Shown: piece after piece, positions 11,466 to 29,237 of the stretch
Layout: each line of letters starts with the position of its first letter
Numbering within the stretch: the first letter of the stretch is position 1
The notes under the pieces: generated by a model
Told to the model about the DNA's origin: nothing
Seen by the model: the letters and a program-made list of their open reading frames with translations, nothing else
Databases searched by the model: none
DNA from: a virus
IMG/VR virus record: IMGVR_UViG_3300045988_109438
DNA: 64,000 nucleotides
Direction: 5' to 3' (one strand)
Position numbers and translations under genes: made by a program

Positions 11466-12689
11466 ATGAGATTAATTGAACAACATACGATCAAGCCAAG
11501 TTCTGTTTATTATAATGAACTTTATGACCTATTGCATAAGTGTAAAAACTTATACAATAAAGGATTGTATGTTGTTAGGCAACACTATTTTCAATACAAG
11601 GATGACAATACCGTAAAATACAAATATCTTAACTACTATTCTCTTGAAAAGAAACTAAGAGCAGAAAATGATGTTGACTATCGTGCTTTACCAACACCAG
11701 TTGCTCAACAAGTGTTGATGATGGTTGATAGAAACTTTAAATCTTTCTTCAATCTTCTAAATAAAAGGAATAGAGGTGAGTATTCCGAATTTGTTAGAAT
11801 ACCTAAGTATCTTAACAAAGATGGTTTGTTTCCTGCTGTTTTTACAACAAATGCTTTTTCTCAAAAATGGATAAAGCAAGGCGTTGTTAAGTTACCAAAA
11901 CAATTTTCCTTTACAACAAGGACTAACAAACAAAATATCCAACAACTTAGATTCATTCCTAAGAATGGGTATATTGTTCTTGAAATAGTTTACAACAAGA
12001 AGGAAAAAGATCTTATGTTAGATAATGGAAATTATCTTGGTATCGACATAGGATTGGATAATTTAGCATCTTGTGTTTCAAACACCGGTTCTTGTTTTAT
12101 TATCAATGGTAGACCACTGAAGTCTATCAACCAGTATTATAACAAAAGGTTAGCATTCTTAAAATCTAAGTTAAAAGATAATAAACATACTTCAAAACAA
12201 ATAAGGTCATTAACAAACAAAAGGAATAACAAGATCAAAGACTATCTTCATAAGGCAAGTAGGATATTGGTTAATCACGTAGTTTTCAATGGTATTAATA
12301 CGATCATAATCGGTCATAACAAATGCTGGAAACAAGAGATCAATATCGGAAAACGAAATAATCAGAACTTTGTATCTATTCCTTTTAATGTATTTATCTC
12401 AATGATATCTTATAAAGCAACATTAGAAGGTATTAATGTTAAGATTGTTGAAGAATCTTATACTTCAAAATGTAGCTTTTTGGATAATGAACGGATTTGT
12501 AAACATGAATCTTACAAAGGAAGAAGGATCAAACGAGGATTGTTTAAAACCTCGTTTGGTAAGATCATCAATGCTGATATCAATGGTGCATTTAACATCA
12601 TTAGAAAATCAGAAAAAGAATCCTTTGATGTAACGATGTTACTAAAAGGTAGAGGGTTTTGGTGGAACCCGGTACGGATTTCCGTATAA
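11466..12689 (+). mobile_element. tnpB: TnpB-like RNA-guided nuclease (IS200/IS605 OrfB family), stand-alone, copy A
   Basis: RuvC-I IDIGLDNLAS, RuvC-II EESYTSK, RuvC-III NADINGAFNI; no TnpA nearby; zinc-finger reduced to C-x7-C. Confidence 0.8.
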
Positions 12690-12886
12690 ATATGTATTAC
12701 TTTACGCTTTTGGTGTAAAGTAATACATAATCACCTAGGAGAGTTGATTGGCGTACCGAATACGGTTATGGACTCAGCATTGCATGAACTGAAAGATAGA
12801 ATAGACAAAGACCCTAAATATAAAGATGTTAAAAATTGGCTCGAATCTTTACCCAAGATCTGAACCTATTTTTTTTCAATACCGGG

Positions 12887-12920
12887 CCCGATGCGATTTT
12901 AACGTATCGGGTTTTTATTT
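12887..12920 (+). terminator. rho-independent terminator downstream of tnpB A (may coincide with IS right end / omega-RNA 3' region)
   Basis: Stem CCCGATGCG/CGTATCGGG followed by TTTTTATTTT. Confidence 0.55.
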
Positions 12921-12991
12921 TAATTCATATTGTTTTATTTTAAATCTAATTAATTCATGAATGTCGTACTTTTGTTGAAAAAGTATTTTTT

Positions 12992-13219
12992 ATGGAAAAT
13001 AAGGAAGATTACGTTGGTTACGAAGATCAAGAACTGTGTAACCGGTATTACAAAGAGGCTGAAGCCATGAGGCAAAAGCAGGACTGGTCTCGGCTTAGGG
13101 CTGTCCCTGCTCCGGCCAAGGGAACGCCATCGCCCGGCTGGGGTCAGCTTGGACGTGGAAATGATGTCCGTGTTAAGTACGTTAGCATCAATTCAGGATT
13201 AGGAGGGGACAGATTATGA
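12992..13219 (+). CDS. hypothetical small protein
   Basis: ORF; ATGA overlap with next ORF. Confidence 0.35.
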   Translation: MENKEDYVGYEDQELCNRYYKEAEAMRQKQDWSRLRAVPAPAKGTPSPGWGQLGRGNDVRVKYVSINSGLGGDRL

Positions 13220-13431
13220 CTGTAGAAGAATTGGCTAATAAAAGATACAGTGGCGAATTTGTTTTCATGCTTGGTCATTTGGAAGGTATAACAAGATTCG
13301 TTTTTGAATGTTTTGATCCCAGACCTGATCACGAAGGTAAAAATACTTATATGGTTTCCTATTTTGATAAGGGACTTCGTAGAAGAGATGTGGTAGATGT
13401 GCCATGTTATATGAATGTTTTAGCAAAATAA
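13216..13431 (+). CDS. hypothetical small protein
   Basis: ORF translationally coupled to previous. Confidence 0.35.
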   Translation: MTVEELANKRYSGEFVFMLGHLEGITRFVFECFDPRPDHEGKNTYMVSYFDKGLRRRDVVDVPCYMNVLAK

Positions 13432-13451
13432 ATTAAAATATTGTAAATATC

Positions 13452-14087
13452 GTGGTTAGAATCGCATATTTCGGAACCGATGGCTGCCCCGGTCATCACG
13501 TTATTCCAATACGAGGTAAATTCACAGAAGAGGATATTAAGGTAATAGAATCTGTAGATTGTGATGATTTCTATAAGGTGTTTGACGTTATGCGTTTTAA
13601 GATAGCTGAGTTTAAAGGATGGACGATATTGGGAATCCCGGCAAGCTTAGACGATCATAGACTTGGAAGCAAAACCGTTATCTTCATAGAAGGTAAAGCT
13701 AACGAAGCTGATTTTATAGAAGTCACACAAGAGTATTCTTTTCTTAAAAATAAGGTAAAGAAACTTGCCGAATTGTATCATGATGGAGAATGGCTTGCGA
13801 CTGGTAAATTGAATCAAGATCCGCCTACTAACAAGGAGCGGTTTCAATTCACGTTAGACAAGGATGATATTATTAACATGATTAGGGGAGTCGATTTAGA
13901 TCCTTATTCTGATGTGGCGAATGAAATGGAGAAAATCGGATTGGGATCATCATCTGATTCTTCATATGAGGGTCCCATATGGTCTTGGTTTGTTAACAAA
14001 GTAGAACTTTGGCAGAAGAATAATGTATGGGATAGTTTCTCCGCTGAGTTTTTGTGGGGTTTGTATTGTAGGATAAAGAAAGTATAG
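13452..14087 (+). CDS. hypothetical protein
   Basis: ORF in accessory operon. Confidence 0.5.
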   Translation: MVRIAYFGTDGCPGHHVIPIRGKFTEEDIKVIESVDCDDFYKVFDVMRFKIAEFKGWTILGIPASLDDHRLGSKTVIFIEGKANEADFIEVTQEYSFLKNKVKKLAELYHDGEWLATGKLNQDPPTNKERFQFTLDKDDIINMIRGVDLDPYSDVANEMEKIGLGSSSDSSYEGPIWSWFVNKVELWQKNNVWDSFSAEFLWGLYCRIKKV

Positions 14088-14195
14088 TAACAATTAATTT
14101 AAAACAAATCATGGAATTAAAAGATTTTAAAGATGTGGTTAGAGTAATGACAAAAGAAGAGTTCGAATCAGCAATCAACGAAGATATTAAATTCG

Positions 14196-14975
14196 TTGAA
14201 AGATTTAAGCATTTTTTTTAAACATGATGATGCTACGAGGATAATAGAACACGTAAAGTCAGTGTTAGAAGCATCAGTAGATTACTTCTATCCTAATCAT
14301 CCTGAAGTAGAATTTGAAAAAGATTTTAATATACAATACGATGTCAATAATATCTTGAACAAATACGGCCACACCGAAATGGGTCTGTATAAAATACAGC
14401 TCTATGTAGAGAAGATTTTGGGTAGTATTCAAAACAAGAAGCCTGTAGACGTGGGAGAAGTCTCTGACGGATACCACACTTTCAATGAATTGTATCGGTA
14501 TAGCATGTTGTATAACGCTGCCTTCTTTAATCTATTAGCCAGAAGCGGACAGGTTGAAGTTTGCAAATCAAGGAGACACAGCGACGGAGAAAAATGCTTC
14601 GGTTCTGATGATTGGTTTATTGTGATGGCGATCCTGCCTACCGGTCAGGTATCTAATCACTATGAAAGCAAATACTGGGATTTGTTTGATGTTCCTGAAA
14701 GAGAAACCGCTTTCGAATACGATGGCCATACACCAAATGAAGCTGCCGACAGACTTAAAAAGTATCTCAAACTGCCTCGTCGTGGCATGACATTCGAACA
14801 GGCTTTAGAACGGCTTAAATTAGGTCGTAAGATAAAAAGAATCGATTGGGGTAAAAAGTATATCTGTATGTTTGACGTAAATATATTGATGGTAGATACA
14901 GGTCAAAAAGTAGCATCAAATTGGAATCCAACCGAACATGATATTATGTCTAATGACTGGGAGATTGCGGGATGA
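14196..14975 (+). CDS. two-domain protein with C-terminal DUF2829 (Tad2-like, Thoeris anti-defense family) domain
   Basis: C-terminus MTFEQALERLKLGRKIKRIDWGKKYICMFD...NWNPTEHDIMSNDWEI fits DUF2829 pattern (M-F-x-A-L-x-x-L-K-x-G-x-K-v-x-R-x-x-W ... W-x-P-x-x-x-D-x-x-x-x-D-W-E-I); N-terminal ~190 aa domain unassigned; possible N-terminal extension from ATG 14111 via T8 run. Confidence 0.6.
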   Translation: MKDLSIFFKHDDATRIIEHVKSVLEASVDYFYPNHPEVEFEKDFNIQYDVNNILNKYGHTEMGLYKIQLYVEKILGSIQNKKPVDVGEVSDGYHTFNELYRYSMLYNAAFFNLLARSGQVEVCKSRRHSDGEKCFGSDDWFIVMAILPTGQVSNHYESKYWDLFDVPERETAFEYDGHTPNEAADRLKKYLKLPRRGMTFEQALERLKLGRKIKRIDWGKKYICMFDVNILMVDTGQKVASNWNPTEHDIMSNDWEIAG

Positions 14976-15247
14976 GTTTGTTTGTATGTTCAAAATGTGG
15001 CTGTATAGATAATACAGCCACATCATATTACTGGGCTCTTATAAGACCTTGTAAGAATCGTATTTACGATAAGTCGCTAAAGGGATATGAAGGCAAGCCT
15101 CTTTGTTCTGAATGTGCCGCTATTGAATATAGTAAGGGAGGCGAAGTGGTGGTAGTTCCTGGAACGTGGCACGGTAAGTTCAAGAAAGAATGGCCTACTG
15201 AAGAAGAAAAGAAACATATTGGTAAAAACGGAATATTAAATTTATAG
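14972..15247 (+). CDS. zinc-ribbon protein (CxxC...CxxC)
   Basis: CSKCGC...CSEC pairs; ATGA overlap with upstream gene. Confidence 0.5.
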   Translation: MSLFVCSKCGCIDNTATSYYWALIRPCKNRIYDKSLKGYEGKPLCSECAAIEYSKGGEVVVVPGTWHGKFKKEWPTEEEKKHIGKNGILNL

Positions 15248-15249
15248 TC

Positions 15250-15555
15250 ATGTGCAATAAAGAAATCGTGATATGCGCTGCCATCTGGGTGCAGGACGGC
15301 AAGAAGCGTCCCTATCAGCCCACCAATATACCATCCGGAACCGTGTTCTGTGGATTGAGACACCCCTCTATACTATCTCAACTTGCGGCATACGGTATAG
15401 CCCATAAAAACCGCAGTGTTCAAGGATTTTTGACAAGCAAGAATCGGTTTTTAACAAGAGAGGAAGCGTCTGAACTTGTTAGAAACAATAATCAGGAGAT
15501 GGTGGTAGATAGGAATGCCATTAGAGAACAGTTGTATTCAGAAGATTTGTATTAA
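15250..15555 (+). CDS. hypothetical protein
   Basis: ORF. Confidence 0.45.
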   Translation: MCNKEIVICAAIWVQDGKKRPYQPTNIPSGTVFCGLRHPSILSQLAAYGIAHKNRSVQGFLTSKNRFLTREEASELVRNNNQEMVVDRNAIREQLYSEDLY

Positions 15556-15572
15556 CTAAAAAATAAAACAAT

Positions 15573-15923
15573 ATGGGATTTATAATCAGAAAGTCAATCA
15601 TTTATAATATGATGGACGGCAATCAATTAAATTATGAATTTGACAACAGGGATTTAGATCATATCACATTTAAAGGTGATGGTAAAGAACCTTTTTCATT
15701 TAACAGAGTCCTTGTTGAAAATTTAATTGAGACATTTGAGACTATGCAAGATATATACTCTGATAATTACGGAATTAAGGTTTATACCGGTAATTGCATA
15801 ATTCAACTGAATGTAAATCCAAAGAACTTAAGTGAATCCTTTTTTGACGTATATGATAGAGATGGGATGAAATTGATATATAGCATACAAAATAGTATCT
15901 TGAAAGAAATGTTTGTCATATGA
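15573..15923 (+). CDS. hypothetical protein
   Basis: ORF. Confidence 0.45.
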   Translation: MGFIIRKSIIYNMMDGNQLNYEFDNRDLDHITFKGDGKEPFSFNRVLVENLIETFETMQDIYSDNYGIKVYTGNCIIQLNVNPKNLSESFFDVYDRDGMKLIYSIQNSILKEMFVI

Positions 15924-16237
15924 TTACTAAACAAGATATACAAGCAGCAGCATCGTATATTTTCCGAAGCAGTTTTGTCTCGGAGGACCAGGCAAGGAAA
16001 GCAATGGTAAAAGCCGGCAATAACGCTACCAAGATCCTCGTCAAGACCTTTAGAGGCAAGTTGTTCAAGAAAGCTTTTGAAAGAGCCCGTAGAGGAAAGG
16101 ATATCAGTTCTTTTGAAAGACAGGAAAAAGAAAGTGGTTTCAATTTTCTACATAATCCTAATAATGGTCGTATGCAAAGCGGTCATATTATAATAGATGG
16201 AATTGGTCTGTTTAAACAAATAATTCATGAAAGGTAA
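15920..16237 (+). CDS. hypothetical basic protein
   Basis: ORF overlapping previous stop. Confidence 0.45.
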   Translation: MITKQDIQAAASYIFRSSFVSEDQARKAMVKAGNNATKILVKTFRGKLFKKAFERARRGKDISSFERQEKESGFNFLHNPNNGRMQSGHIIIDGIGLFKQIIHER

Positions 16238-16400
16238 AAAAGTTGATATTCGTTTAGGCAGAGGTCTGGCGAATCAGATTAAGATAAACAAAACCATTCC
16301 AGTGTCTCATAAACCAAAAGAAGAACGTCGAATGATGTTTATTTGTGGTGATGATATTGCTTCTCTTATAAAGCGGTTTGAAAACGAATCAAAGTAATAT

Positions 16401-16434
16401 AAAGTCGGACATGTGTCTTGTCCGACTTTTTTTA
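16401..16434 (+). terminator. rho-independent terminator closing the accessory operon (AAGTCGGAC/GTCCGACTT + T7)
   Basis: Perfect 9-bp stem, 9-nt loop, TTTTTTT. Confidence 0.7.
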
Positions 16435-16446
16435 TATATTTGTGGC

Positions 16447-16913: not shown

Positions 16914-19900
16914 ATGGTATCAACGTGTATTATTAAAAGAGATAATAAAAAGAAAGTTGTTTCTGTCTCTACCAGATCAGGGGACAGGTCTATGTTGTTT
17001 GATAAGATAGCATCTATTCCTCTTATGGAGAACAGGGAACGGGCTACTACTGTTTTTAAAACCGTATTTTCTAATAAGTTCTTAAAGGATTTTGGCGACT
17101 GGAGAAAGAGAGTGCCTATCAACAAACCGGCTTATAATAAGGTTAAATCCAACATTGATCTTATTCCGGAAGCTTATAGAGAAAGGGTACTGGATAAGGC
17201 TTCTAAGATGAGCAACCCTATTCTTGTGTCAAAATCAGATGCACCTTATGGAATCCGAGAATCGGGCTTTGGATTCTACAGCCAAGATCTGGGTGATAAT
17301 ATTATGTTGGTGGATGCTATGGTTCCGTCAAGTATTTCCGTACCGGAAGGACCTGGAATAGACGCCGGGCAGTATTTACAAGATGCTATATCTTCGGACT
17401 TCACTCCCGTATCTATGGTACAGGATAAGGGTGTTAATTATATGGTTATAAAAGACGGTCTTAAGATATTTAGCCCAGAAGAGTTACCACAGACAGATTC
17501 TAATCCTGTGGGTGTAACGTATCATACTGGAGAGCCTCGTTTGTTTTTCATGAACGATCGTAGTCAATTATTTGAAGATTACGGAGAAGCTCTTCGCTCT
17601 GGAGGGAATGATATTAGAATAGGATTCTTATCCGGCACCGTTCAAGAATCTGCCGTGGATGGCGTGGCAGACATTACTTACAAGGCTGGAAAGTATGTTC
17701 TTAATAACCCCAAGTCTTTTATACCGGTCATGACCGCTTCTGCTTCTACTTCTTTATCAACAAAAGGTGGTATAATTAACTACCTTATAAAGAAAGGTCT
17801 TTTGTCCGGATCCAAGATATTCGATCCGGAAACAAGAAGCTATTATATTACAGGAGAAGGACATACAGGACAAATTAGACTTTTCAATTCAGCCTTATCC
17901 TACACTGAGCTCCGTAATCATTTTGGTTCCGATGTTTCCATGAACGACCAGGGTATGATAACCATAAATTCATTGGATAATAGTAAGGTAACTATGAGAC
18001 TCGCCACCGGAGGAACAGAAAGAGTTAGCAAGGAGCAGATAAAGAGCGATCTTAAGTCTGGAAGATACAATGAATTGGATGCTAAATACGATCACTTTGA
18101 TGCGCTTGTAGTTTCATTTATATTAGAAGACAATGATCTTTATGCTGATACTAAAGCTAAGATAGTATCGGATTATAGCCAAGAGGAACGTAATCAACGA
18201 AATTCTATTGTTGAGATACTGAAAACGCTGGGCGTTAGTGTCGTTGGCATGACCGATTATATAGAGAAGTACCAAACTAAATACGGACACGAACCTTCTG
18301 CTAAGGCATTGGCGGATATTGCCAATAACGTAATAGCAGTCGGTGAAGATGCTACTTTGTCTGACTTAGTAGAAGAAACAGCACACTTTCTCGTAGAGGC
18401 GTACAGAGATCAGAATGCTGTTGAATCTGTTTTGCAAGATGTAGAAGGCACTGAAGAATGGAATCAGTATGCAGGTCAGTATTATAATACATACGGTAAG
18501 GTATATGAAGGCTCTGAACTTGATAATGCTGTTAGGAGAGAAATTCTTGGAAAGATCCTCGCCAGGGAGATGCAGACCGGCACAGCACAGGCGCCGGTAG
18601 AGCCCACCTCCTTCCTGGGGCGCGTCCGGCAGCTTTTCTCTGGAATCGTAAGCTGGCTTAAATCAGCTTTATCAACCCAAAGACAAGATTTGAATAACGT
18701 TATTAAAAACATTCGTGATCTTGCCATTACTGACATAGATAAAGGATTTGACACCTCTCTGTTAAAGGATAATGACTTTACATTATACTCCCTTTCTTCT
18801 ATGAACAAGAACAAGTTTCTTGAGTCTAAGATCCTGGCATTAAGGAAAACATTAAGAGACTTACGTCAGATAAGCTCTGATAGGGCTGTAACTACGTCTA
18901 TGGCCCTTGCTCAGCTTAAGACCATAGAAGATAAGATAAATAAGGTAGAGACCGAAATAGACAAGAATGAGATGGCGGCTGCCATGAACAGCATGATCTC
19001 TACAGCCGAAGCTCAGGTCAGATACTTAAGCAATGTGGTGAACACCATCCTTCATGGTGATACCAAAGACGGTAAGCTTCACTTCAATACCAATGATCGA
19101 AAGAACGTAGATATTATCAACAATCAGGTTCTTCCGATCATGAACGATCTTCGAGGATATATCCGTAACAGAAGTACCGAATTTGATGAACGTGAAAAGC
19201 AGGATTATACAAATAGGATCAATACCGTCATTGCCGACATCAATGGTATTCAGTCTGATATTAAATCAGTACAAGACCTTGATGAAAGTACGTTGCTTGA
19301 TAAGTTAATGAACGAACTTCATGTGCCGGCAGATAAGGTAAAGAGAGTAAAAGAATTTTTCGACAAGGTTCAACACGATGTTTCTTGGATAAGTAGGTGG
19401 TTCGGTATATTAGAGCATTCTTCCAGTCCGTTCAATAACGCTCTTGGAGCTATGATTGCCAAAGACAATTACAATGCGATGGTGAATGCCCAGCCCGCCA
19501 TATCCGATTTCCTGGCATATGCGAAAAAGCATGGTTTTAACAAATCTGAATTTGAAAAACTGCTTCAGAAAGTAGACGGCAAAACTTCTAATTACCTTCG
19601 TAGTGCTCTTGATATGGCTAAATACGATCGTAATAAGAAGCTGGCGCAGATGCGAGCGTTTGCGACTGCCATGAACATAGAGATATCAGAAGAAGAAATT
19701 GGTGATGTGGTTGACAATAACCGTAATTACGTATTTAAAAGAGAAGTAGTTGACAAGGATGGAAATACGGTTACTGAAAACGCTAAATTCAAACCATCGT
19801 CTGATAGGGTTAATACCGATATTTTTACCATCGAGCAGGAAAAGATCTATACAGAGCAGATGGAAAAGTGGGATGCTGAAAATTCGGAACTGGAATTTAG

Positions 19901-22900
19901 CGAAAGTTATGCCACAAGAATGGAATCCATATACAAAAAGGCTGAAGAAGAATTAGGGTATCCGGTTTCTCAAACAACCAAAGAATACCTTAATGCCCTA
20001 TCCCGGCAAAAACGGATATTGAGGCAGCCTTTTATTGATAGCGGTGGTAATTTTGATGAAGTTGCCTATTTTAAAAGCAGCAATTACGAAGAAGAAGGAC
20101 TGCTTCGTAAACAACGTAAAGAAGCAGCTTCAGAATACATATATGTAGGAACCAGGAGAGTGGAAAAAACCGGCGACCAACTTAAGATGGCCAAAGAAAT
20201 ACAAGCTATAAATGAAGTTTGGAGAAAAGAATCAAATAATGTTACCAATGCCGTATCAGAATCGTTTTTGCAAAAATTAAGAACGATTCAGAGCGAGTCG
20301 GGAGGAGAAGCTGCGCTGAAGACACTTATGTTGGGAGGTCACCTGTCGTTCAATGATCGGTTTTGGAATGAAGTAGAATCGGAACAGTCGGCGCGTACCG
20401 AATCAAATAACAAGGCTTCGTATCTTAAAATGGCGCATGATATCATTAGTTCTACGACAAGTGATAGAGATGCGACTGACGTGGATTCGATTGTGAAAGA
20501 TATAGAAAAAAATAAGGCCATTATCAAGGAAATAATCGGAAACAACCGAGATGTGGCTGATATCGGAGAAATTAACGAAGCGACATTTACCTCATCTGAA
20601 AGAGATGCTTTTAGGGCCGCATCTGAAGCTATTGAAGCTGATTACGCTATCTTAATAGATTATGCTAAGATGGTGGGTCTTGAAGATATTGATAAGTACC
20701 TTACTAAAAGCAGTAAGGCCGAAAACGAAGTAAATCAGTCTTATTTAAATGCTCTTGCTGACTCCAAGGAAGTGGAATGGAAGTTCGTACAACGTCATAC
20801 TACGGCGAAGAAAGCAAAAAGGATTCAGGCTTTAAGGGATAAGCTGTTTAAGGCTGCTGATAACCGATATCTGTTTACCGTATCTGAAACCAACTACCTG
20901 TCAGAAAAGCTTGGTATAAGCAAAGAATTAGACGGTAGAGATTTTAGGAATGCTGTCAATACTAAGATGGCCAGCTTGTTTTTAAATAACACAAGAGAAT
21001 CAGGTATAGAAGAGGCTAATGCTATTGTTAATGAATTTGCCAGAAGTCAAGTCTTTTCATATTACAAACGCATGACTCCTACCGGATATGCGGCTATGCT
21101 TGGTAAAATAGGTCGAGGTGAGATAGACGTGGCACAGATGGTTAAAGACGTACAGAACGGGACATCCACACAAGATTATGGTATGAATATATCGTACCTG
21201 TCTTTCGACCCTGCAAGAGCGTGGGTGGCTGAATCTGAAGCTGAAAATAGCGGTCGTAACCCAGATTATGTAAAAGATCATGGGTATGGTTATCGTATGC
21301 CCAAGAAGAGCCTGTATCGTGATGAATCGTATTTCAATGACTTCGGCATTAGATATGATGCTGATGGTAATGAGATTGCTACTAAAAACGTAGAGCAATG
21401 GAATATGATTCAAAAACTTAAGGAAATAAAAAGACAATCCCTTTCCTTATACAAAGAGCAGAGCCCCAATTTGTATGCTATTCCACAGATATCCAAACAA
21501 GATATAGAACGTATGGAGGGATTGGGTATCAACTTCAAAAATACGGTTCGTAATTTTGTATCAGATCTCTGTCTGGACAGAGTAGACGATTCTCTATACG
21601 GTAAAACCAGACAAGGGGAAGTATATGATCCAGAAGATAGGATTAGGTCTATACCTAAATACTACATATATGAATTAGAGAACCAAGATGACGTATCTCA
21701 TGATTTTGGTTATTCTTATTCGATGCTTATGATGCAATCATCGTTATACAACGAAAAGCAGAAGTCTATAGAGCTTGCCCAAGGACTGGAGCAGATGTTA
21801 CTGAATAAGCAATTTGAAGGCGGTAAGAAAGCTGAGGCAACTCAAGCATACCAGATGTTTAGAGACTTCTTTAATGACCATTATTATGGCATTAGGATGA
21901 ACACCAAGAAACTTACGGTTAACATCGGTGGATACACGATAGATCTTACAAGAATTATGATGGCCGTTGAAAGATTTATGTCGGTCATGAACTTAGCGCT
22001 GTCTCCGTTTGTGGCAGCTACCGGCGCCCTGACAGGTCATATCAACCTCATCATGGAATCTGCCGTAGGACAGTATATAAGCAAAGACTCCCTTAAATAC
22101 GCATCGGCTGAGTTTTCACGTCTTGCGCCATCTTGTATAGCAGAAACCGGAGACATAGATAGGAAAAGCAAATTATATGTCATAGGTGAGAGAATGGGGA
22201 TATTCAATATCCGAAATCGTATGTATGGTGCCGGATACAATAGAGCGGCCAGGACCTTAATGCGTTCGCCTATGTATGCTTTTATGGAAATCCTGAACTA
22301 CCCTCTTGATCCGCAGGTTATGATTGCTACTATGGACAATGTTCGTTATTACAAAGGCCGGTTCTACACGTTCCAAGATTTCAAGATGGAAAAAGAACGC
22401 AATAAAGAACAGAGTACCATAAAAAGAGAATGGAATGCATTAAAAGATCGTACTTTATGGAGTATGGTAGACGTCGTGGATGGAAAGGTGGTTGTAAAGC
22501 CGGGATCGGGTGTTACTGTTGAGGAAGTTGAAACCCAGATGGCTATAACCAGGAATCAAGTCCGTAGCTTGTCGCAGATATGTAACGGATCTTTGAATGA
22601 AGAAAACCGAACTGCCGCATCGCGCAACTGGATAGCCAGGTTCATGACCGCCCACCGAGGCTGGCTGGTGCTGGCAGCTCAGCGTCTGTGGAAAAGACGT
22701 GGCTTCAATTTCCAGACAATGCAAGAAGAGGAAGGGTTGTCAATTACGTTAAAGAATATGATAGCCAAAACATTTAGCCTGGCTTCCGAGTCTGGTATGA
22801 AAAACATCATAGATGCCTGGAACGAAAATAAAGACAATATGAATGAGGTAGAAAAAACTAATCTCAAACGCCTCAGTGTCTATGCCGGCACGTTCCTTAT

Positions 22901-23336
22901 CATGCAGGCCGTATCTATGCTTCTTGCCGGATGGCGTGATGATGATGAAAACGAAGAAAGTTGGCTTACTCAATTTGGATCCTATGTCGGATTCAGAACC
23001 ATAAACGAAATAGCTTCACAGATGCCGTTTATTATGGAGCTTAACGTGGTAGATATCATTAACGATCCGTTTGTTATGGGGCGAAAACTGAAGGATCTTA
23101 CCGATCTTAGGAATTATTCACTTGATAAAGTAACATCCGGTGCATACAAGGGAGAGTCTAAGTTATTTAGGCAACTCGCCAAACAGACGTTTATCAAACA
23201 ATGGTATAATATCAAGACGCCGGAAGACGTAGCGCGCGCCTATAATTGGTGGCAGCAGACGAACAACAAGTCAATGATGTTCTTCATCGGCGCTACTCCT
23301 GATTCGGAAGGAGACGATGACGTTAGTTACAAATAG
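16914..23336 (+). CDS. giant virion protein (2140 aa); C-terminal region with hydrophobic helices - tape-measure/ejection-protein candidate
   Basis: 6.4 kb uninterrupted ORF; coiled-coil rich middle; predicted TM-like segments near residues ~1700-1950; no DxDGD RNAP motif found. Confidence 0.7.
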   Translation: MVSTCIIKRDNKKKVVSVSTRSGDRSMLFDKIASIPLMENRERATTVFKTVFSNKFLKDFGDWRKRVPINKPAYNKVKSNIDLIPEAYRERVLDKASKMSNPILVSKSDAPYGIRESGFGFYSQDLGDNIMLVDAMVPSSISVPEGPGIDAGQYLQDAISSDFTPVSMVQDKGVNYMVIKDGLKIFSPEELPQTDSNPVGVTYHTGEPRLFFMNDRSQLFEDYGEALRSGGNDIRIGFLSGTVQESAVDGVADITYKAGKYVLNNPKSFIPVMTASASTSLSTKGGIINYLIKKGLLSGSKIFDPETRSYYITGEGHTGQIRLFNSALSYTELRNHFGSDVSMNDQGMITINSLDNSKVTMRLATGGTERVSKEQIKSDLKSGRYNELDAKYDHFDALVVSFILEDNDLYADTKAKIVSDYSQEERNQRNSIVEILKTLGVSVVGMTDYIEKYQTKYGHEPSAKALADIANNVIAVGEDATLSDLVEETAHFLVEAYRDQNAVESVLQDVEGTEEWNQYAGQYYNTYGKVYEGSELDNAVRREILGKILAREMQTGTAQAPVEPTSFLGRVRQLFSGIVSWLKSALSTQRQDLNNVIKNIRDLAITDIDKGFDTSLLKDNDFTLYSLSSMNKNKFLESKILALRKTLRDLRQISSDRAVTTSMALAQLKTIEDKINKVETEIDKNEMAAAMNSMISTAEAQVRYLSNVVNTILHGDTKDGKLHFNTNDRKNVDIINNQVLPIMNDLRGYIRNRSTEFDEREKQDYTNRINTVIADINGIQSDIKSVQDLDESTLLDKLMNELHVPADKVKRVKEFFDKVQHDVSWISRWFGILEHSSSPFNNALGAMIAKDNYNAMVNAQPAISDFLAYAKKHGFNKSEFEKLLQKVDGKTSNYLRSALDMAKYDRNKKLAQMRAFATAMNIEISEEEIGDVVDNNRNYVFKREVVDKDGNTVTENAKFKPSSDRVNTDIFTIEQEKIYTEQMEKWDAENSELEFSESYATRMESIYKKAEEELGYPVSQTTKEYLNALSRQKRILRQPFIDSGGNFDEVAYFKSSNYEEEGLLRKQRKEAASEYIYVGTRRVEKTGDQLKMAKEIQAINEVWRKESNNVTNAVSESFLQKLRTIQSESGGEAALKTLMLGGHLSFNDRFWNEVESEQSARTESNNKASYLKMAHDIISSTTSDRDATDVDSIVKDIEKNKAIIKEIIGNNRDVADIGEINEATFTSSERDAFRAASEAIEADYAILIDYAKMVGLEDIDKYLTKSSKAENEVNQSYLNALADSKEVEWKFVQRHTTAKKAKRIQALRDKLFKAADNRYLFTVSETNYLSEKLGISKELDGRDFRNAVNTKMASLFLNNTRESGIEEANAIVNEFARSQVFSYYKRMTPTGYAAMLGKIGRGEIDVAQMVKDVQNGTSTQDYGMNISYLSFDPARAWVAESEAENSGRNPDYVKDHGYGYRMPKKSLYRDESYFNDFGIRYDADGNEIATKNVEQWNMIQKLKEIKRQSLSLYKEQSPNLYAIPQISKQDIERMEGLGINFKNTVRNFVSDLCLDRVDDSLYGKTRQGEVYDPEDRIRSIPKYYIYELENQDDVSHDFGYSYSMLMMQSSLYNEKQKSIELAQGLEQMLLNKQFEGGKKAEATQAYQMFRDFFNDHYYGIRMNTKKLTVNIGGYTIDLTRIMMAVERFMSVMNLALSPFVAATGALTGHINLIMESAVGQYISKDSLKYASAEFSRLAPSCIAETGDIDRKSKLYVIGERMGIFNIRNRMYGAGYNRAARTLMRSPMYAFMEILNYPLDPQVMIATMDNVRYYKGRFYTFQDFKMEKERNKEQSTIKREWNALKDRTLWSMVDVVDGKVVVKPGSGVTVEEVETQMAITRNQVRSLSQICNGSLNEENRTAASRNWIARFMTAHRGWLVLAAQRLWKRRGFNFQTMQEEEGLSITLKNMIAKTFSLASESGMKNIIDAWNENKDNMNEVEKTNLKRLSVYAGTFLIMQAVSMLLAGWRDDDENEESWLTQFGSYVGFRTINEIASQMPFIMELNVVDIINDPFVMGRKLKDLTDLRNYSLDKVTSGAYKGESKLFRQLAKQTFIKQWYNIKTPEDVARAYNWWQQTNNKSMMFFIGATPDSEGDDDVSYK

Positions 23337-23550
23337 ACGAAGAATATCGGACTTGCATTGTTTTTGTATGATTCCAATATGTTATATTAGCATCGTCAAA
23401 GAGTAGATTGTACGTTTTTTTGTTCTTACTTGAAAGATTATGTAGGTTTAATTTTTTCTGAAATTGTTTTCTTACCGGTTCTCAGTCAGAGATGATAGAG
23501 AACCGGTTTCTTTTATGTTGTCAATTATTGCTATCTTGCAAACAAAAATC

Positions 23551-23949
23551 ATGAGACGAAGATTTCAAATAGGGATGGGGGTAAATCCCTCGCTTATAAT
23601 CAATAAAGGCATATACATCCAACATGTAGATGGAGGATTATATACAAAAGAAAATTGGTCTAATAAAGGATATTCCAATGATCTATGCAATGGAATAGCT
23701 CTTGTAGATAAAGTGTGTTTTGTTATAGCCACCGAATATATTGGCACATTTAGTTGGGGTAAGGATGGAGAAATAGACAATATATTTGCACAAGATAGTT
23801 CTCATATGGGAACTATTAAAAAGGATTATTGGGGGCGTGAAAATCAGAATGCGTATCTTGAATATGATACCAGTAATACAGATTACGCTTTTAATAAAGC
23901 TAATAGCTATGGTAATTATATACAAGTTTACACCTGTAATATTAGTTAA
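23551..23949 (+). CDS. hypothetical protein (convergent with tnpB B, 8-nt overlap)
   Basis: ORF with ATG at 23551 (MRRRFQIG...). Confidence 0.4.
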   Translation: MRRRFQIGMGVNPSLIINKGIYIQHVDGGLYTKENWSNKGYSNDLCNGIALVDKVCFVIATEYIGTFSWGKDGEIDNIFAQDSSHMGTIKKDYWGRENQNAYLEYDTSNTDYAFNKANSYGNYIQVYTCNIS

Positions 23950-25153
23950 TAAATTTCTTAACCGGGTTATACCCAAACCCTGTATAGGGTGGCATTACTG
24001 CATCCCCTTTTACTTTTCTCATAATATTATAACTTCCGTTGACATCAGCGTTTAACAACACACCGTCTTTTGTCCTAAAGATTCCTCTTTTCAACCTTTT
24101 ACCAACGTAAGTATTATGATGACATACTTTCTCCAAATCATAAGAACTGCATTTTGACGTATGAGACTCATTTACTACAAAGAATCTTAGTCCTTGTCTT
24201 TCTGATTTGTACTTTAACATTGATATAAAATCACCAAATGGGATAAAAACAAAATTCTGGTTGCTTCTCTTACCTATATTAACTTCCTGTTTCCATCCGT
24301 CATTATGACCTACTATCAATGTAGTTATATTATCTTCAACACAAATATCTATGATTTTTTTACTTGCTTTATGAAGATAATCCCTTACCTTGCTATTTCT
24401 TTTTCTTGTTAAAGACGCTAACCGTCTCGAATTTTTCTTGCCATTTACTTTCTCCAATTTACTTTGTAAAAACGAACGTTTCTTATTATAATATTGATTG
24501 ATGGATTTCAATTTTCTTCCATCTATCAATACCGGTTTGTTACTAACGTTAGTAACAACAGAAGCAAGGTTATTAACACCTAAGTCTATAGACATTATCC
24601 TATTGTTGTCAACTTTCTGTTCTTTACAACAAGATTCGTAAACTAATTCAATAACATAACATCCTTGTCTTGGTATTATCCTAACTTGTTTAACACTACC
24701 TTCTTCACACTTTGTTTTTAAGGGAGGTAGTCCTTCTTTCTTAGGGAAATAAATATATTCACCTCTATGCCGTATTTGGGCATAAGAATAGTTAAAAACA
24801 TTCCTGCCCTTTACCTTGTCCTTGTACTTAGGGAACTTAGGACATCCTGTGAATTTCTTGTTATCCCTTTTCCAAGCCTTAATAGAAGAGAAATAAGATT
24901 TTAGATTCTTATCTAATCCCATCAATATCTGTTGTGAAGAAGATCCACTTAATGCCCTGAAATCAGGATTGTTTTCAGATACCATTTTCTTGTTAAGATC
25001 CGTACATCTAATCCACTTTCCTGTATTAAGGAACTCTTGTTTGATAACATAAAGTCCAGCATTATACAGGTTCTTTGACAAGAAACAGATACGATCTAAC
25101 ATCTTATATCTCCTATCACCTTGGGTAATTATATGTTGTTCTACCAAATACAT
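23942..25153 (-). mobile_element. tnpB: TnpB-like nuclease (IS605 OrfB family), copy B
   Basis: SIDLGVNNLAS, NESHTSK, NADVNGSYNI; shares LKSINQYYNK block with copy A. Confidence 0.8.
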
Positions 25154-25157
25154 GCTG

Positions 25158-25194
25158 CAAATATAAATAGAATATTTTAAATACGCTATTTATA
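25158..25194 (-). repeat. perfect 11-bp inverted repeat AATATAAATAG...CTATTTATATT between lipoprotein gene and tnpB B
   Basis: Read directly; could be terminator or IS left-end subterminal hairpin. Confidence 0.5.
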
Positions 25195-25419
25195 TTTTAC
25201 GATCTTAACAGAATCTCCGATATTGTATTCCCCTTGGTGTCCAACGAATTTTATAAACCTATTATTTTTAAATATTGAAACTCTTCCGTCTTCACCATAA
25301 TACATCACATATCCATCCTGTAAAGGACATAGATCATATATAACCCATCCTTCATTAACCTGATCATCATGCGAACATGATGATAACACAAGTGCCATCA
25401 ATAAAACAAAATACCTCAT
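25186..25419 (-). CDS. small lipoprotein (signal peptide MRYFVLLMALVLSSC lipobox)
   Basis: Hydrophobic N-terminus followed by L-S-S-C; start at internal Met preferred. Confidence 0.5.
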   Translation of the reverse strand: MRYFVLLMALVLSSCSHDDQVNEGWVIYDLCPLQDGYVMYYGEDGRVSIFKNNRFIKFVGHQGEYNIGDSVKIVKYK

Positions 25420-25497
25420 ATTGTTTTCAAAATAAAAATTTGTAATCATCATAGTACAGCTCGGAAAGAACATCTTCTACGTACCCATCTAAGTAAT

Positions 25498-26211
25498 TCA
25501 TGATCGTTCCTCCTTATTTTTAGATTCTGCCTCTTCGAGTATGCTAATTACCTTATCGACAATATTCGAATCAGACATTTTCTCAATAAAAACATCCATC
25601 GCCTTAGTTATGTCATTGGCTTCTTTTTCCTCAAGAGCTATTTCCCCACCGGTAATAGCATCAGATAATGATGTAGATAAGTGTCTTATCTTATCAATGC
25701 TCATAAACGTAAATGGATTACCACCTTGACCCCCACCCATTTCTTTCATGATCTGATATCCACCTGAGATAAGTCTGCCTGATGTCGTGGCCAAGGAGGA
25801 TACGATTCGGGACAGTACCGCCGCTTCCGTCCACTCCTCGGACACACCCCTCGACCACACGGCTGCCCTTATAGCGCCGGCCAGGTCGTCTATGTATGGC
25901 ATGAGGCAATCCTCCATCGCTTGTGTTATATCAGCTATAACCTCACTACGCTCTTTATTTATGTAGTAGATAGAAGCATTGTACCTCTTTATCTCTTTGT
26001 CCATATCATTTAAAAGACGCTTGATATTGTGCTTATACATAGGACTGGTTTTAATTATTTCCTTTAGTTTAAGAATGTAATTATAAGCCTGGTCGTTTAC
26101 GAATAACGTCATGGTCTCAACCGTTGAATGAAGCGTGTTAAGACTGTTAAGAATCTTATCGAAATTGTTTATCAAATAAGCTTTCCTGGCTTTTGCCGCG
26201 TAATTAATCAT
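25498..26211 (-). CDS. hypothetical protein
   Basis: ORF. Confidence 0.5.
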   Translation of the reverse strand: MINYAAKARKAYLINNFDKILNSLNTLHSTVETMTLFVNDQAYNYILKLKEIIKTSPMYKHNIKRLLNDMDKEIKRYNASIYYINKERSEVIADITQAMEDCLMPYIDDLAGAIRAAVWSRGVSEEWTEAAVLSRIVSSLATTSGRLISGGYQIMKEMGGGQGGNPFTFMSIDKIRHLSTSLSDAITGGEIALEEKEANDITKAMDVFIEKMSDSNIVDKVISILEEAESKNKEERS

Positions 26212-26734
26212 CGCATTTAAATTTTAGATTTTCAAGTTCATTCAATTGTTTCTTAGTAGACTCGATCAGGTACGCTCTCCGTTCCTCTGCATGTTTTAAA
26301 GCTTCTTCTTTGCTCTCAAAAGCATCCATTCCTATTTCATAAGGAGTGAACCTATCAGGGATGTTGGCTAACAAAAGACCGCCGTACTCTTCTATTTTAG
26401 CTTTTACTTTTCTTATTATACCGTCTCTCAGGCACGCATCCGTAACCCATATAAATCTATCACATTCTTCTAATTCCCTTTCGTACAATTCATACCATTT
26501 CGGCTTAGGGAATCTTAATGTGAATCTAATTTCGGTATCTTTCTCTAAGACATTAATATCATACGCCTCCGGCCACAGTTCTTTTATACTGTCTTCGTCT
26601 TCAGCATACGCCACCAATACAAATGAATTACTGGATTCTGCGCTACACCAATACGGGTATTTTATAGGCCATTTGACTGGACGGTAATCATTGTCACAGT
26701 CATCCTTTCTAATGTGAAATCTTGCTCTGATCAT
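26204..26734 (-). CDS. hypothetical protein
   Basis: ORF. Confidence 0.5.
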   Translation of the reverse strand: MIRARFHIRKDDCDNDYRPVKWPIKYPYWCSAESSNSFVLVAYAEDEDSIKELWPEAYDINVLEKDTEIRFTLRFPKPKWYELYERELEECDRFIWVTDACLRDGIIRKVKAKIEEYGGLLLANIPDRFTPYEIGMDAFESKEEALKHAEERRAYLIESTKKQLNELENLKFKCDD

Positions 26735-26735
26735 A

Positions 26736-27044
26736 TTATTCTACTTTTTTGATTTCGCTCAAATCGTCTTCATACACCAAATAAGATCCTCTTCCAGGTC
26801 TTCCTTCTTTATTGGGTGCCTGGATCGTAAATATAACTGTTCCAGTACTCATGATTTGAACGCTCTTGAAGAAACCAACAAGAGATTCTTTCGAACGTTT
26901 GTAAAGAACGCTCACTTTATCTCCCTTCTTGAATCCATAAACAGAATCGAAATAATCCTTTTTAATTCTTTCAATATTACTTCTGTGTTTGTCCATTGCT
27001 TCAAACTCGTCGTCTAACAGACGAATCATTTGTTCTTTTGTCAT
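26736..27044 (-). CDS. hypothetical protein
   Basis: ORF. Confidence 0.45.
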   Translation of the reverse strand: MTKEQMIRLLDDEFEAMDKHRSNIERIKKDYFDSVYGFKKGDKVSVLYKRSKESLVGFFKSVQIMSTGTVIFTIQAPNKEGRPGRGSYLVYEDDLSEIKKVE

Positions 27045-27598
27045 TTCTTTTCCTCCTTATTCAATGGTATTAATCCTTTTCCGTGCTTATCATACCACAG
27101 CATAGCTATACAATTCCACGCACATTGTGCAAGATGAAAACACCCTGTATCTGAGTCTATTCTTTCTCCTTTCATGTATTCCATTAGGTGTCGAAATATT
27201 GCAGCACGATACCGTTCAATGCCATTGTCAAGATTCTGCCAAGTATTAGGACCGTACTTTTTGGCTCCGGCATGATAGACTTTTACAATGTCCTCAATCT
27301 CTTCCATTGGAAGCAAATCCCATCGTAGTTTATCATCAATGATGTCATTTTTCACCGATTTGTTTTCTATGGGGTCTTTGGTAAGAATAATATCCATAAT
27401 ATCCGTTTCTATGACGAACGTCTCCCCATTACAACAAACCTCAGCATATTTATCATTTACTTCTATGTCTGATACTGCCTCCGCTATAGCTCCTTTGGCT
27501 ATTTTAAATTCTGCACTGATTATATCATCTTTCAATATGCGAAAAATAGATCCTTTTGGATAAAGGATATTTTTAGTATTATCATCCATCTTTTCCAT
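27041..27598 (-). CDS. MazG-like dATP/dGTP pyrophosphohydrolase-domain protein
   Basis: RWDLLPMEEIEDIVKVYHAGAKKYGPNTWQNLDNGIERYRAAIFRHL resembles phage dNTP pyrophosphohydrolase N-terminal domain (RWDLLP...KYG..NW...R...RH). Confidence 0.5.
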   Translation of the reverse strand: MEKMDDNTKNILYPKGSIFRILKDDIISAEFKIAKGAIAEAVSDIEVNDKYAEVCCNGETFVIETDIMDIILTKDPIENKSVKNDIIDDKLRWDLLPMEEIEDIVKVYHAGAKKYGPNTWQNLDNGIERYRAAIFRHLMEYMKGERIDSDTGCFHLAQCAWNCIAMLWYDKHGKGLIPLNKEEKK

Positions 27599-27650
27599 TG
27601 CTTTATCGTTGTTTTACCTCATTTCGATAGCAATATAATCCATCTTCGTC

Positions 27651-27938
27651 TTATACCCTATCATTTCTGTTTTTCTCAAAATACTGTTTTACGGCTTCAA
27701 TCGCCTTATCGTCATCAAAAGCCTCTACAAACCCCTCATAGAATCTATTTCGCTCCATAGAGAACGTATTGCTTCCATCCGGAATGGTTCTGAACACAAC
27801 TACCTTCTCTCCATCTACGTTCGTTCCTATGATGTTGTTATGGAGAATAATAGAATACCGCCCAGAGTTTTTGTTCTGGACGACACTATGTTCGAGATTG
27901 TAGAGTCTAAGTAGTTCTCTTATTTCTTTTACTCCCAT
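27651..27938 (-). CDS. hypothetical protein
   Basis: ORF. Confidence 0.45.
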   Translation of the reverse strand: MGVKEIRELLRLYNLEHSVVQNKNSGRYSIILHNNIIGTNVDGEKVVVFRTIPDGSNTFSMERNRFYEGFVEAFDDDKAIEAVKQYFEKNRNDRV

Positions 27939-27980
27939 GTTATGAAAAATATTAAATTCAATAAAATCTATTATGTTTCT

Positions 27981-29237
27981 TTATAAGTTTCCGGATATAT
28001 TCATTTTGTAAAATACATTCGTAATCCTTACCGGGTTAAACAATAACCCTCTATCGATTATCCTACGAATTGATTCACAGGAATCACCGACTACTTTTCT
28101 CATAATGTTTAATGCTCCATTTATGTCTGCATTTATGAGTTTTCCTACCGAGGATTGAAACAATCCTCGGTTCTTCCTCTTTCCTAAATAGTTTTCATGT
28201 TTTCCTATCTTCTCAAATGCTAATGAATCACATTTTGAAGTATATGACTCTTCATGAATAACTATTTCAATACCAGCTAATTCACATTTATATTCTAAGT
28301 AACTCACCAATCTCGCAAAAGGGATTTGTGTGAATTTCTGGTTATTCCTTTTTCCCATATTCACATTCTGTTTCCATCCCTTGTTATAGCCTACAACTAA
28401 TTTTGTTATCTTAGAATCGACAAGCAAATCAACTATCTTTCTACTGATTTTATGAAAGACATCTTCTATGTACTGTTCCCTATCATAATATAATTTCTTT
28501 ATTCGCTTTGTTATTCCTTTTATCTTTTGTAAATCCTTGATACTATTTAATTTAGCAAGTGTTTTATTAAATAATTGATTGTATGATTTAACAAATTTAC
28601 CACTAAACAAAACAGTAAAATCCTCACTTACTAATGTTGCAAGATTATCAATCCCTAAATCGATTGAAGCAACTTTCTCTTCCCTACATTTAGATACTCC
28701 AGTATCTTTTACCTCATAAATGATTTCTATTTTATATCCACACGCTAATGGTTTTATTCTAATCTGTTTGAAATCTTTTATCAAATCAGAATACTTTTCA
28801 TATTGAGGAATACTTATTGAAATATCTTTTGATAGGATTATTTTTCCATCTTTTATTTTGCAACTCTGATTCGTGTAATACAAATTAAATTCAGATCCTC
28901 TTTTTCTATAACTTGGAAGGCCTGGTTTTTCCCTATACTTATTATAATTTTTCTTGTAATCTTGGACCGATTTGTAGTAACCTTTAATGTTTTTATCAAG
29001 AATACGAAGAATTTGTTGTGAACATTGCGCCTTTAATAATTTGTAATTAATATCTCCATCCAAATTCTTGGTATTTTTCATGATAGCATCAAGTTCAAAA
29101 TAGGACAACCACTTATCTTCTTTAGAAAGTGTTTCTCTGAAAATATACAATGCCTGATTGTACAAGTTGTTGCTAATCTTGCATAAAGATGATATATTTT
29201 CATTTTGTCCTATGTTAAACTTATATACTAATCTCAT
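27981..29237 (-). mobile_element. tnpB: TnpB-like nuclease, copy C (most divergent; zinc-finger cysteines largely lost)
   Basis: SIDLGIDNLAT, EESYTSK, NADINGALNI; only one Cys where CxxC...CxxC expected; embedded between early genes with ~40 nt spacers. Confidence 0.75.

Follow-up and report, generated by a model that had tools for sequence, protein, structure and literature searches.

The stretch of viral DNA analysed here (IMG/VR virus record IMGVR_UViG_3300045988_109438, 64,000 nt, referred to below as the window) carries three stand-alone genes for TnpB, designated tnpB-A, tnpB-B and tnpB-C. The results are best accounted for if the three genes are the cargo of recently mobile elements of two transposon types, in each of which tnpB is the sole gene, with TnpB of A and B most likely acting by homing. 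A probability of roughly 0.7 was given to this reading. The coding regions are listed below.

11466..12689, + strand: tnpB-A, 407 aa, reading frame open from a TTG at 11427
23942..25153, - strand: tnpB-B, 403 aa, 43% identical to the A protein
27981..29237, - strand: tnpB-C, 418 aa, recognised by Pfam and NCBIfam profile matches

The three stand-alone genes reported in the initial annotation were recovered at these positions as open reading frames (ORFs) with full-length profile matches. All three proteins matched the Pfam families OrfB_IS605 (PF01385) and Cas12f1-like_TNB (PF07282), and the NCBIfam profile guided_TnpB NF040570 was matched over its full length (5-389 of 389) with E values of 1e-45 to 1e-54.

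The window was approximately 95% identical to csAssE-Sib (OR575929.1, locus L001 in this analysis), a 151-kb epsilon crAss-like phage of human gut origin. All three tnpB copies were absent from csAssE-Sib, and hence the empty sites were visible and the junctions could be placed exactly. The search for empty sites in related phages that had been proposed at the outset was thereby productive, and an exact empty site of element C was also found in L202. Apart from two other TnpB genes, no transposase is listed in the annotation of csAssE-Sib itself, and its publication names only two 'transposases'. The lack of a TnpA gene that had been noted before was borne out: tblastn revealed neither an IS607 serine TnpA nor an IS1595 transposase in the 64-kb window, and an approximate IS200 Y1 probe gave no match there (E>1). 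The Y1 enzyme was, however, the wrong one to miss. The enzymes that matter are a DDE transposase for A and B and a serine recombinase for C, both of which are encoded elsewhere in the phage population.

Element A was a clean insertion relative to csAssE-Sib and was bounded by terminal inverted repeats (TIRs) and by an 8-bp target-site duplication (TSD). Its parts, including a putative target-adjacent motif (TAM), are given below; the slash in sequences marks the junction.

11389..12735, + strand: element A, a complete 1347-bp non-autonomous IS1595-shell element with tnpB as its sole gene, delimited by the csAssE-Sib empty site
11389..11412, + strand: left TIR, GGTGATTATATACAACTTTACACC, whose first 23 bases equal the TIR of L412, L416 and L417 (23/23)
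12712..12735, + strand: right TIR, an inverted copy of the left one and the 3' arm of the terminal hairpin
11381..11388, + strand: left copy of the 8-bp TSD, TAGGAGAA
12736..12743: right copy of the 8-bp TSD, TAGGAGAG; the csAssE-Sib empty site has a single TAGGAGAG
11378..11380, + strand: TAA, putative TAM in the context TTTAA/T, directly 5' of the left TSD
12736..12755, + strand: putative guide, TAGGAGAGTTGATTGGCGTA, taken from the DNA beyond the right end
12738..12863, + strand: 3' remnant of a split 56-aa gene, 41 codons and stop, from translation against L001 16348..16518

The putative guide of A equalled, base for base, the stretch after TTTAA in the empty site of csAssE-Sib (TTTAA/TAGGAGAGTTGATTGG, L001 16391..). 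The ends of A were conserved across 80 IMG/VR loci at many different sites. The insertion split a 56-aa helix-turn-helix-like gene after codon 19 (11332..11388; annotated as 'DNA binding protein', L001 16348..16518), and the TAA lies inside this coding sequence, out of frame. It had been proposed that about 300 nt of non-coding DNA downstream of A carry a hairpin that marks the right end of an insertion sequence (IS) and a guide-RNA scaffold. The hairpin does mark the right end, as well as the end of the likely scaffold. The approximately 300 nt are only in part element DNA, since the element ends at 12735, 46 nt after the stop codon, and is followed by the 3' part of the split gene. Two other descriptions of A were ruled out. 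An IStron, that is, a group I intron with TnpB, was rejected because only 77 nt precede the ORF and no intron match was obtained. An IS605-like reading of the duplicated TAGGAGA, in which the right end mimics the target, was rejected because the 8-bp duplications differ at many sites. The same filled A site was also seen in L002 and L003.

Element B was of the same type, with its left end truncated.

23911..25196, - strand: element B, an IS1595-shell tnpB element, left end truncated, tnpB and right end intact
23911..23934, - strand: right TIR, GGTAATTATATACAAGTTTACACC on the + strand
23891..23910, - strand: putative guide, ATAGCTATTAGCTTTATTAA on the - strand

csAssE-Sib holds AAATAA/ATAGCTATTAGCTTTATTAAAAGC, in which TAA-A is followed by a target identical to the right flank of B (in the longer stretch, AAATAA/ATAGCTATTAGC). 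Positions 23911..25194 of the window replace L001 26813..28378 (1566 nt). The outer approximately 34 nt of the left end, including the TIR, and 1.57 kb of adjoining phage DNA were missing, and in complete B-type elements (L082 and others) GGTGATTATATACGACTTTACACCTAAAAACATC precedes the point at which the window copy begins. With its left repeat lost, the window copy should be immobile for the transposase. The deleted 1.57 kb contains three small csAssE-Sib genes, and the last codons of the gene beside B (25186..25473) are now supplied by the left-end remnant of B. The GC skew changes sign at about 23900..24000, and B sits where the + strand structural block meets the - strand replication block.

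The transposon shell of A and B was compared among IMG/VR relatives (579 of A and 317 of B), of which 160 loci, mostly gut phage contigs of 60-160 kb, were aligned and showed many insertion sites. At 68 non-redundant sites, the A/B-type elements had conserved ends; a perfect 8-bp TSD was found at 19 sites and a 7/8 match at 6 more, and no other TSD length fitted across the 68 sites. TIRs and TSDs are absent from IS200/IS605 and IS607 elements (PMC13565253, PMC6188088). A TIR-pattern scan with one genome per bacterial species matched at least 120 stretches, 80 of which were examined. Approximately 25 of the 80 loci carried a gene of about 305 aa with the PF12762 DDE_Tnp_IS1595 domain (E 1e-44) some 80 nt inside the repeat, in some cases adjoining a passenger gene (KilA-N, RhuM), and no TnpB was found near the TIRs in these 80 loci.

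An alignment of these transposases recovered 486 IMG/VR relatives. The transposase-bearing phage elements were 2.8-4.2 kb long; their TIR was identical to the first 23 bases of A in L412, L416 and L417 and was B-like in L396, L387, L427 and others, and 8-bp TSDs were present at 27/43 unique sites. A and the autonomous elements were homologous only over the terminal repeats of about 24 bp on either side. On three phage contigs, a TnpB element was accompanied by a transposase element, and in the 80 transposase-centred phage loci examined (out of the 486 relatives) a transposase and a TnpB were never found inside one TIR pair. In crAss-like phage contigs and Bacteroidota genomes, the autonomous elements carried passengers of 1-3 kb up- or downstream of the transposase, among them lipoprotein-like, HNH, KilA-N and RhuM genes (e.g., L412 678..4187, L396 852..4166, L257 4077..6371 and L276 480..2645). 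The autonomous elements act as cargo transposons in phages. Gene-less miniatures with the same repeats were also observed, namely TIR pairs of 331 bp and 204 bp and back-to-back repeats of 51 bp (L121 650..980; L381 6809..6859; L397 4229..4279; L256 5125..5328).

According to these results, A and B were classified as derivatives of the IS1595 family (DDE, ISXO2-like) with TnpB as cargo; they are non-autonomous and not insertion sequences in the strict sense because no transposase lies in A, in B or in the window. Their earlier assignment to IS605-type elements was not upheld. A and B are built with 24-bp TIRs of the kind common to IS1595 DDE transposons and with 8-bp TSDs, and a hairpin is found at the right end only, in contrast to the subterminal hairpins that IS200/IS605 elements have at both ends. 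It is therefore very doubtful, and of the explanations considered the least probable, that the three genes are IS200/IS605-type (IS1341-like) orphans left after loss of a Y1 TnpA, with C domesticated in an early operon: the missing TnpA, the OrfB_IS605 matches of all three proteins and the tight packing of C between phage genes of the same orientation speak for it, but the IS1595-type TIRs and the TSDs of A and B, which IS200/IS605 elements lack (PMC13565253), and the empty site, the roughly 30 other sites and the TnpA-bearing relatives of C, whose packing stems from insertion in a 1-nt spacer, speak against it.

The DNA next to the insertions carried a motif that depended on the TnpB lineage, which was the best indirect indication that TnpB is active. 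At 53 of the 68 unique TnpB-element sites, T[AT]A was present at positions -11 to -9, directly 5' of the left TSD. On the mirror side it was seen at 8/68 sites (p 2e-15) and beside autonomous elements in 16/86 flanks (p 1e-13), with a background rate of 5%. In family B, each of the bases T, A and A was found at 28/29 sites. The base after the right end, which is also the first TSD base, was T at 38 of 39 family A sites and A at 22 of 29 family B sites (p 8e-11). AAA-T occupied the same positions in a third lineage of TnpB that uses the IS1595 shell, each base at 15-16 of 18 sites (p 3e-8). The motif is one-sided, phased and variable with the nuclease lineage, and it is missing where the cargo is a transposase. 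These features argue for a TAM that would be kept by RNA-guided homing and not for a target preference of the transposase. The near-invariant base after the right end may belong to the RNA scaffold, as in IS607 elements, or to the TAM.

A guide RNA was predicted at the right end of A.

12622..12735, + strand: predicted scaffold of the omega RNA (right-end RNA, reRNA) of A, with four stems; it shares sequence with the 3' end of tnpB and stops at the right end of the element

The terminal hairpin of 16 bp lies at 12691..12729, and the right repeat forms its 3' arm, a feature also reported for Fanzor RNAs of TIR transposons. The fold was clearly more stable than shuffled sequences, with z values of -6.2 and -5.65 when the terminal 180 nt (12556..12735) and 150 nt, respectively, were folded. 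The consensus structure of 12556..12735 from 22 family members was 97.8% paired, compared with about 40% in slid controls, and compensatory changes were found at 6 pairs of the A-family structure, some of them inside the coding region. The 3' end of C folded modestly (z -2.9). No Rfam family matched at the gathering score when the whole window was scanned. The search for hairpins and TAM-like motifs that had been suggested earlier thus yielded both a right-end hairpin in A and a lineage-specific motif on the left side. A hairpin GGGUU(N5-7)AACCC, which codes for G-F/L-x-x-N-P near the 3' end of the ORF, was common to A, B and C (12657..12673, 23964..23980 and 28033..28049) and was kept although the three proteins are only about 40% identical.

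Element C belonged to the second transposon type.

27937..29342, - strand: element C, IS607-type without tnpA, about 1.4 kb, no TIR and no TSD; a shared AT leaves the exact ends ambiguous

C lies in a 2.3-kb segment that is present in the window and absent from csAssE-Sib. The exact empty site was found in L202 at 8285-8335 (AAAATAATAT/GGGAGTAAAAG). When the filled and empty sites were compared, the dinucleotide AT was the only sequence common to both junctions, as expected for a serine recombinase. The C family comprised 96 relatives in IMG/VR, with ends conserved at many sites and neither repeats nor duplications; about 30 other insertion sites were visible in phage contigs. An overlapping 201-aa TnpA with a Resolvase domain was encoded in L192, L202, L203, L215 and L216, where TnpB was 77-86% identical to C, and remnants were found in seven more loci. 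Hence, C was classified as an IS607-type element from which the serine-recombinase gene has been lost, and it is mobile. The initial annotation had taken C to be domesticated, citing spacers of about 40 nt within the early operon. The spacer is 42 nt downstream but about 106 nt upstream, and the idea of domestication was abandoned in view of a discrete 1.4-kb element with its absence from csAssE-Sib, its empty site, its other sites and its relatives with TnpA. C was inserted in the 1-nt spacer of TAA-T-ATG that separates gene 29344..30090 from gene 27651..27938, and the AT at the end of C restores the ATG (27936..27938, 29341..29346), which accounts for the tight packing. Many right flanks in the C family start with G, so that ...AACAT/G supplies the following gene with its start codon.

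The catalytic residues of the three proteins were then read from sequence and structure comparisons. The AlphaFold model of A had a mean predicted local distance difference test (pLDDT) score of 86.9, and Foldseek matched it to Cas12f, ISDra2 TnpB (8h1j), ISFba1 TnpB (8iaz) and mimivirus Fanzor2 (9b0l) with E values of 1e-13 to 1e-17. A phmmer search of A alone against PDB sequences gave no match, and the structure alignment was obtained by profile instead. With these profile and structure comparisons, the assignment to TnpB was unchanged. The motifs IDxG, E[SH]YTSK and NAD[IV]NG were present in A, B and C, and D194, E330 and D371 (A numbering) were invariant in a 19-sequence alignment. The statement that the RuvC D/E/D residues are kept in all three proteins was therefore correct, with the qualification that the E is the alternative RuvC-II glutamate. 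In the profile alignment to solved TnpB and Cas12f structures, the canonical RuvC-II glutamate position was occupied by G-H/Y-N ('IIGHNKCWKQE'), and the conserved glutamate was the 'alternative' one directly before the former zinc finger ('EESYTSKC'). The RuvC-I motif reads IDIG or IDLG. The alternative glutamate together with D-I/L-G in RuvC-I places all three proteins, on the alignment, in the 'Ealt, D-phi-G' class of Yoon et al. 2023 (PMC10711439). RNA-guided DNA cleavage by these TnpBs would be predicted.

The zinc finger was degenerate, as had been observed before: C retains one Cys, whereas in A and B C-x8-C is left, with a His after it, which corrects the C-x7-C spacing given earlier. 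The four cysteines were absent from the clade consensus; the loss is clade-wide and not a sign of decay. The zinc finger is found in 'many' and not in all TnpBs (Yoon et al. 2023, PMC10711439), and its absence is therefore compatible with membership in the family. Protein identity was 43% for A-B, 38.5% for A-C and 40% for B-C. A and B, which had been described as clearly closer to each other than to C, are thus only marginally so; they are united by the transposon shell rather than by protein closeness.

The closest relative of A outside the shell was P0104 (57% identical), which lies directly after a Resolvase-domain gene in six loci, the arrangement of IS607. Because P0104 follows an IS607 Resolvase gene, the A and B TnpBs were concluded to descend from IS607-type elements; three insertion sites of the IS607 relatives of A were available in L440-L445, too small a number for deriving their TAM. 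The third lineage in the same IS1595 shell was unrelated. It was represented by a 410-aa protein in L012 (4942..6272) and by L447-L492, with 55 IMG/VR relatives, and had the canonical RuvC-II glutamate ('IIEDLN') and an intact CxxC finger. Its presence in the same shell indicates that capture happened more than once. The ORF and all three catalytic motifs were intact in 129 of 133 A/B-type elements, and the median ratio of nonsynonymous to synonymous substitution rates (dN/dS) was 0.08 over 293 A/B-type pairs, values that point to strong purifying selection on TnpB.

A mechanism was proposed that would join these observations. The IS1595 transposases of sister elements with the same repeats would move the A and B shells in trans into AT-rich 8-mers. 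Of such an element, A and B retain only the approximately 24-bp TIRs required by the transposase, and tnpB with its predicted 3' scaffold takes the place of the transposase gene. The right-end RNA would extend into the flank, so that the guide would consist of the TSD and the downstream DNA. With the motif directly upstream of the TSD (TAA-T for A, TAA-A for B), TnpB would cut related phage genomes that lack the insertion, and recombination with a filled genome during co-infection or replication would copy the element in, in the manner of a homing endonuclease. Copying of this kind is termed 'transposon non-restorative homing' in a review (PMC13565253). The filled allele would be protected, since the motif is followed there by no more than 8 nt of target. 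Only insertions 8 bp downstream of a motif could drive, and assemblies, which represent majority alleles, would mostly show those; this restriction would explain the one-sided motif at nearly all assembled insertions. Element B, with one repeat lost, would spread by the recombination route only.

IS1595 is regarded as the prokaryotic counterpart of the eukaryotic Merlin superfamily. It was further proposed that these phages offer a prokaryotic parallel to the origin of Fanzor: at least three TnpB lineages, two of them IS607-derived with the alternative glutamate and one canonical, would have moved into an IS1595/Merlin-type shell and spread in crAss-like phages as a re-targetable homing element, with the motif as the footprint of the drive. 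This wider proposal was made with less assurance than the homing reading of the window and was judged slightly likelier to be right than wrong.

Several results weigh against homing by IS1595-shell and IS607-type elements as set out above. An IS1595 transposase is lacking in the 64-kb window, which is part of a phage genome. The TSD was kept at only 25/68 TnpB-element sites, compared with 27/43 for autonomous elements, and many TnpB-element sites share one flank and not the other, the same left flank being joined to several right flanks (L133/L134, L136/L146/L148/L154, L448/L451). Possible causes of TSD loss are adjacent deletions as at B, recombination between copies and intramolecular transposition; when inter-copy recombination was examined, orphan left TSDs reappeared as right flanks in 5/43 cases of the sample. 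TAA was found at 7/43 autonomous-element sites, above background, and hence an AT-rich target preference supplies part of the motif signal. The covariation support for the RNA is modest and comes largely from one sub-clade, and the 3' end of B did not surpass shuffled sequences in folding (z -1.2). Sequence statistics are the source of both the putative guide and the putative TAM. Furthermore, the 108-nt left end of the short form of C is unrelated to that of full IS607 relatives (L202 was compared), and the agent that mobilises C is uncertain.

The same data could be read in another way, with TnpB as a passenger or in some other role, such as inter-phage exclusion or RNA-guided repression, and with TAA-N8 as a transposase preference or as the result of survival after stop codons. 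The many unrelated passengers in IS1595 phage elements and the mild TAA enrichment at autonomous elements (7/43) are in keeping with this, as are the facts that TAA is a stop codon and that many insertions are intergenic. However, the motif is phased at -11..-9, one-sided and lineage-dependent (TAA-T, TAA-A, AAA-T) within the same shell, it is rare beside transposase-bearing elements with identical TIRs, and the TAA of A is in coding sequence and out of frame. A nuclease-dead regulator is also unlikely given the invariant RuvC residues and the dN/dS of 0.08. On balance, this explanation was regarded as improbable, although it is the strongest of the alternatives.

The fixed distance between nearly all insertions and the motif would also be obtained if TnpB with its RNA, at a TAM or a guide match, directed the IS1595 transposase to insert 8 bp downstream. 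In Cas12k-guided transposons, descendants of TnpB are able to direct transposases, and a 2025 preprint (bioRxiv 10.1101/2025.08.27.672191) reportedly engineers the direction of transposases with TnpB-family proteins. Direction of this kind was judged quite unlikely here: the RuvC triad is intact, unlike that of Cas12k, adaptor genes are lacking, the transposase is on other elements and a site 8 bp from the TAM would fall inside the R-loop. Selection by homing explains the pattern and requires no new mechanism.

The arrangement of A and B was compared with known systems. Fanzor2* and Fanzor1 are eukaryotic TnpB homologues that were captured by DNA transposons of the cut-and-paste type with TIRs and TSDs (Bao & Jurka 2013, PMC3627910; Yoon et al. 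2023, PMC10711439). Like A and B, they combine an IS607-lineage TnpB and the alternative glutamate with a position as sole gene in a non-autonomous TIR/TSD transposon whose DDE transposase acts in trans, as would be the case for A and B. As in A, the TIR lies within the predicted guide-RNA scaffold, the TSD separates this scaffold from the unique flanking DNA, and they are found in viruses. They differ by DPG in RuvC-I and by a eukaryotic host or the virus of a eukaryote, in contrast to D-I/L-G and a bacteriophage here. Moreover, the window proteins are TnpB-sized (403-418 aa) with the zinc-finger cysteines lost, and at least two unrelated lineages, one with the alternative and one with the canonical glutamate, use the same IS1595 shell. 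A and B work like Fanzor2* but are not Fanzors, since DPG is absent and the host is a crAss-like bacteriophage.

IS607 elements with TnpB (ISXfa1; PMC10711439) resemble C in having no TIR, no TSD, a shared dinucleotide at the junction and relatives with an overlapping serine recombinase; the junction dinucleotide is AT in C and GG in IS607 elements (Yoon et al. 2023, PMC10711439). In A and B, the base that follows the right end is near-invariant and recalls the 'right-flanking nucleotide' of IS607, which is part of the RNA scaffold (PMC10711439). The three window copies differ from IS607 in having no TnpA, and A and B have IS1595 repeats in place of IS607 ends.

IS1595-family insertion sequences (ISfinder family; PF12762) have the TIR consensus GGTRAYTATATA..A.TTTRCA and an 8-bp TSD, and passenger genes are common. 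A and B share the consensus and the TSD length with IS1595 insertion sequences but have no transposase, and their passenger is a nuclease predicted to be guided by an RNA of its own. A and B resemble the solo-TnpB elements of IS1341 type (IS200/IS605) in a size of about 1.3 kb, in TnpB as sole gene and in a right-end guide RNA, which in A and B is predicted. IS200/IS605 elements lack both TIR and TSD, are inserted directly 3' of the TAM and use a Y1 HUH transposase (PMC13565253). None of these traits is found in A and B, whose motif is parted from the left end by the 8-bp TSD. The free-standing homing endonucleases Seg and Mob of T4 (PMC13565253) resemble the proposed mechanism in cutting a co-infecting genome that lacks the gene, in spreading by repair and in co-converting the flanks. 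In contrast to Seg and Mob, recognition here would be by an RNA guide and a TAM that are re-set at each insertion site, and the gene lies within a true transposon.

No description of this arrangement, with TnpB in IS1595, Merlin or ISXO2 elements or in crAss-like phages, was found in the literature, the coverage of which was incomplete, and an earlier description is possible. As far as was found, the placement of such a gene inside the inverted-repeat shell of a different transposon family has been described only for eukaryotic Fanzor genes. In prokaryotes, TnpB is currently tied to IS200/IS605 and IS607, and capture by a TIR transposon is treated as a eukaryotic step toward Fanzor1. If the proposal is true, the same capture took place in bacteriophages more than once and gave hundreds of copies in gut viromes (579, 317 and 55 relatives). 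The shell would also offer a natural test of homing drive, as it occurs with and without the nuclease and a TAM-filtered landscape is expected only with it. The proteins are compact, zinc-finger-less TnpBs with candidate A/T-rich TAMs and defined, predicted scaffolds. The elements also point to where mis-annotated 'transposases' can come from in the genomes of crAss-like phages, and to an origin of deletions and rearrangements there.

Two further observations were made. A 4.3-kb contig, L446, of the Parabacteroides goldsteinii assembly GCA_949386655.1 encodes a second TnpB besides a protein with 90% identity to A; its filing under a Bacteroidales genome could be a hint to the host or could reflect phage contamination of the assembly. 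A single ORF of 2140 aa at 16914..23336 of the window corresponds to two overlapping coding sequences in csAssE-Sib (L001 19836..20681 and 20581..26238), a difference that may stem from a frameshift in a structural protein or from the way it was annotated.

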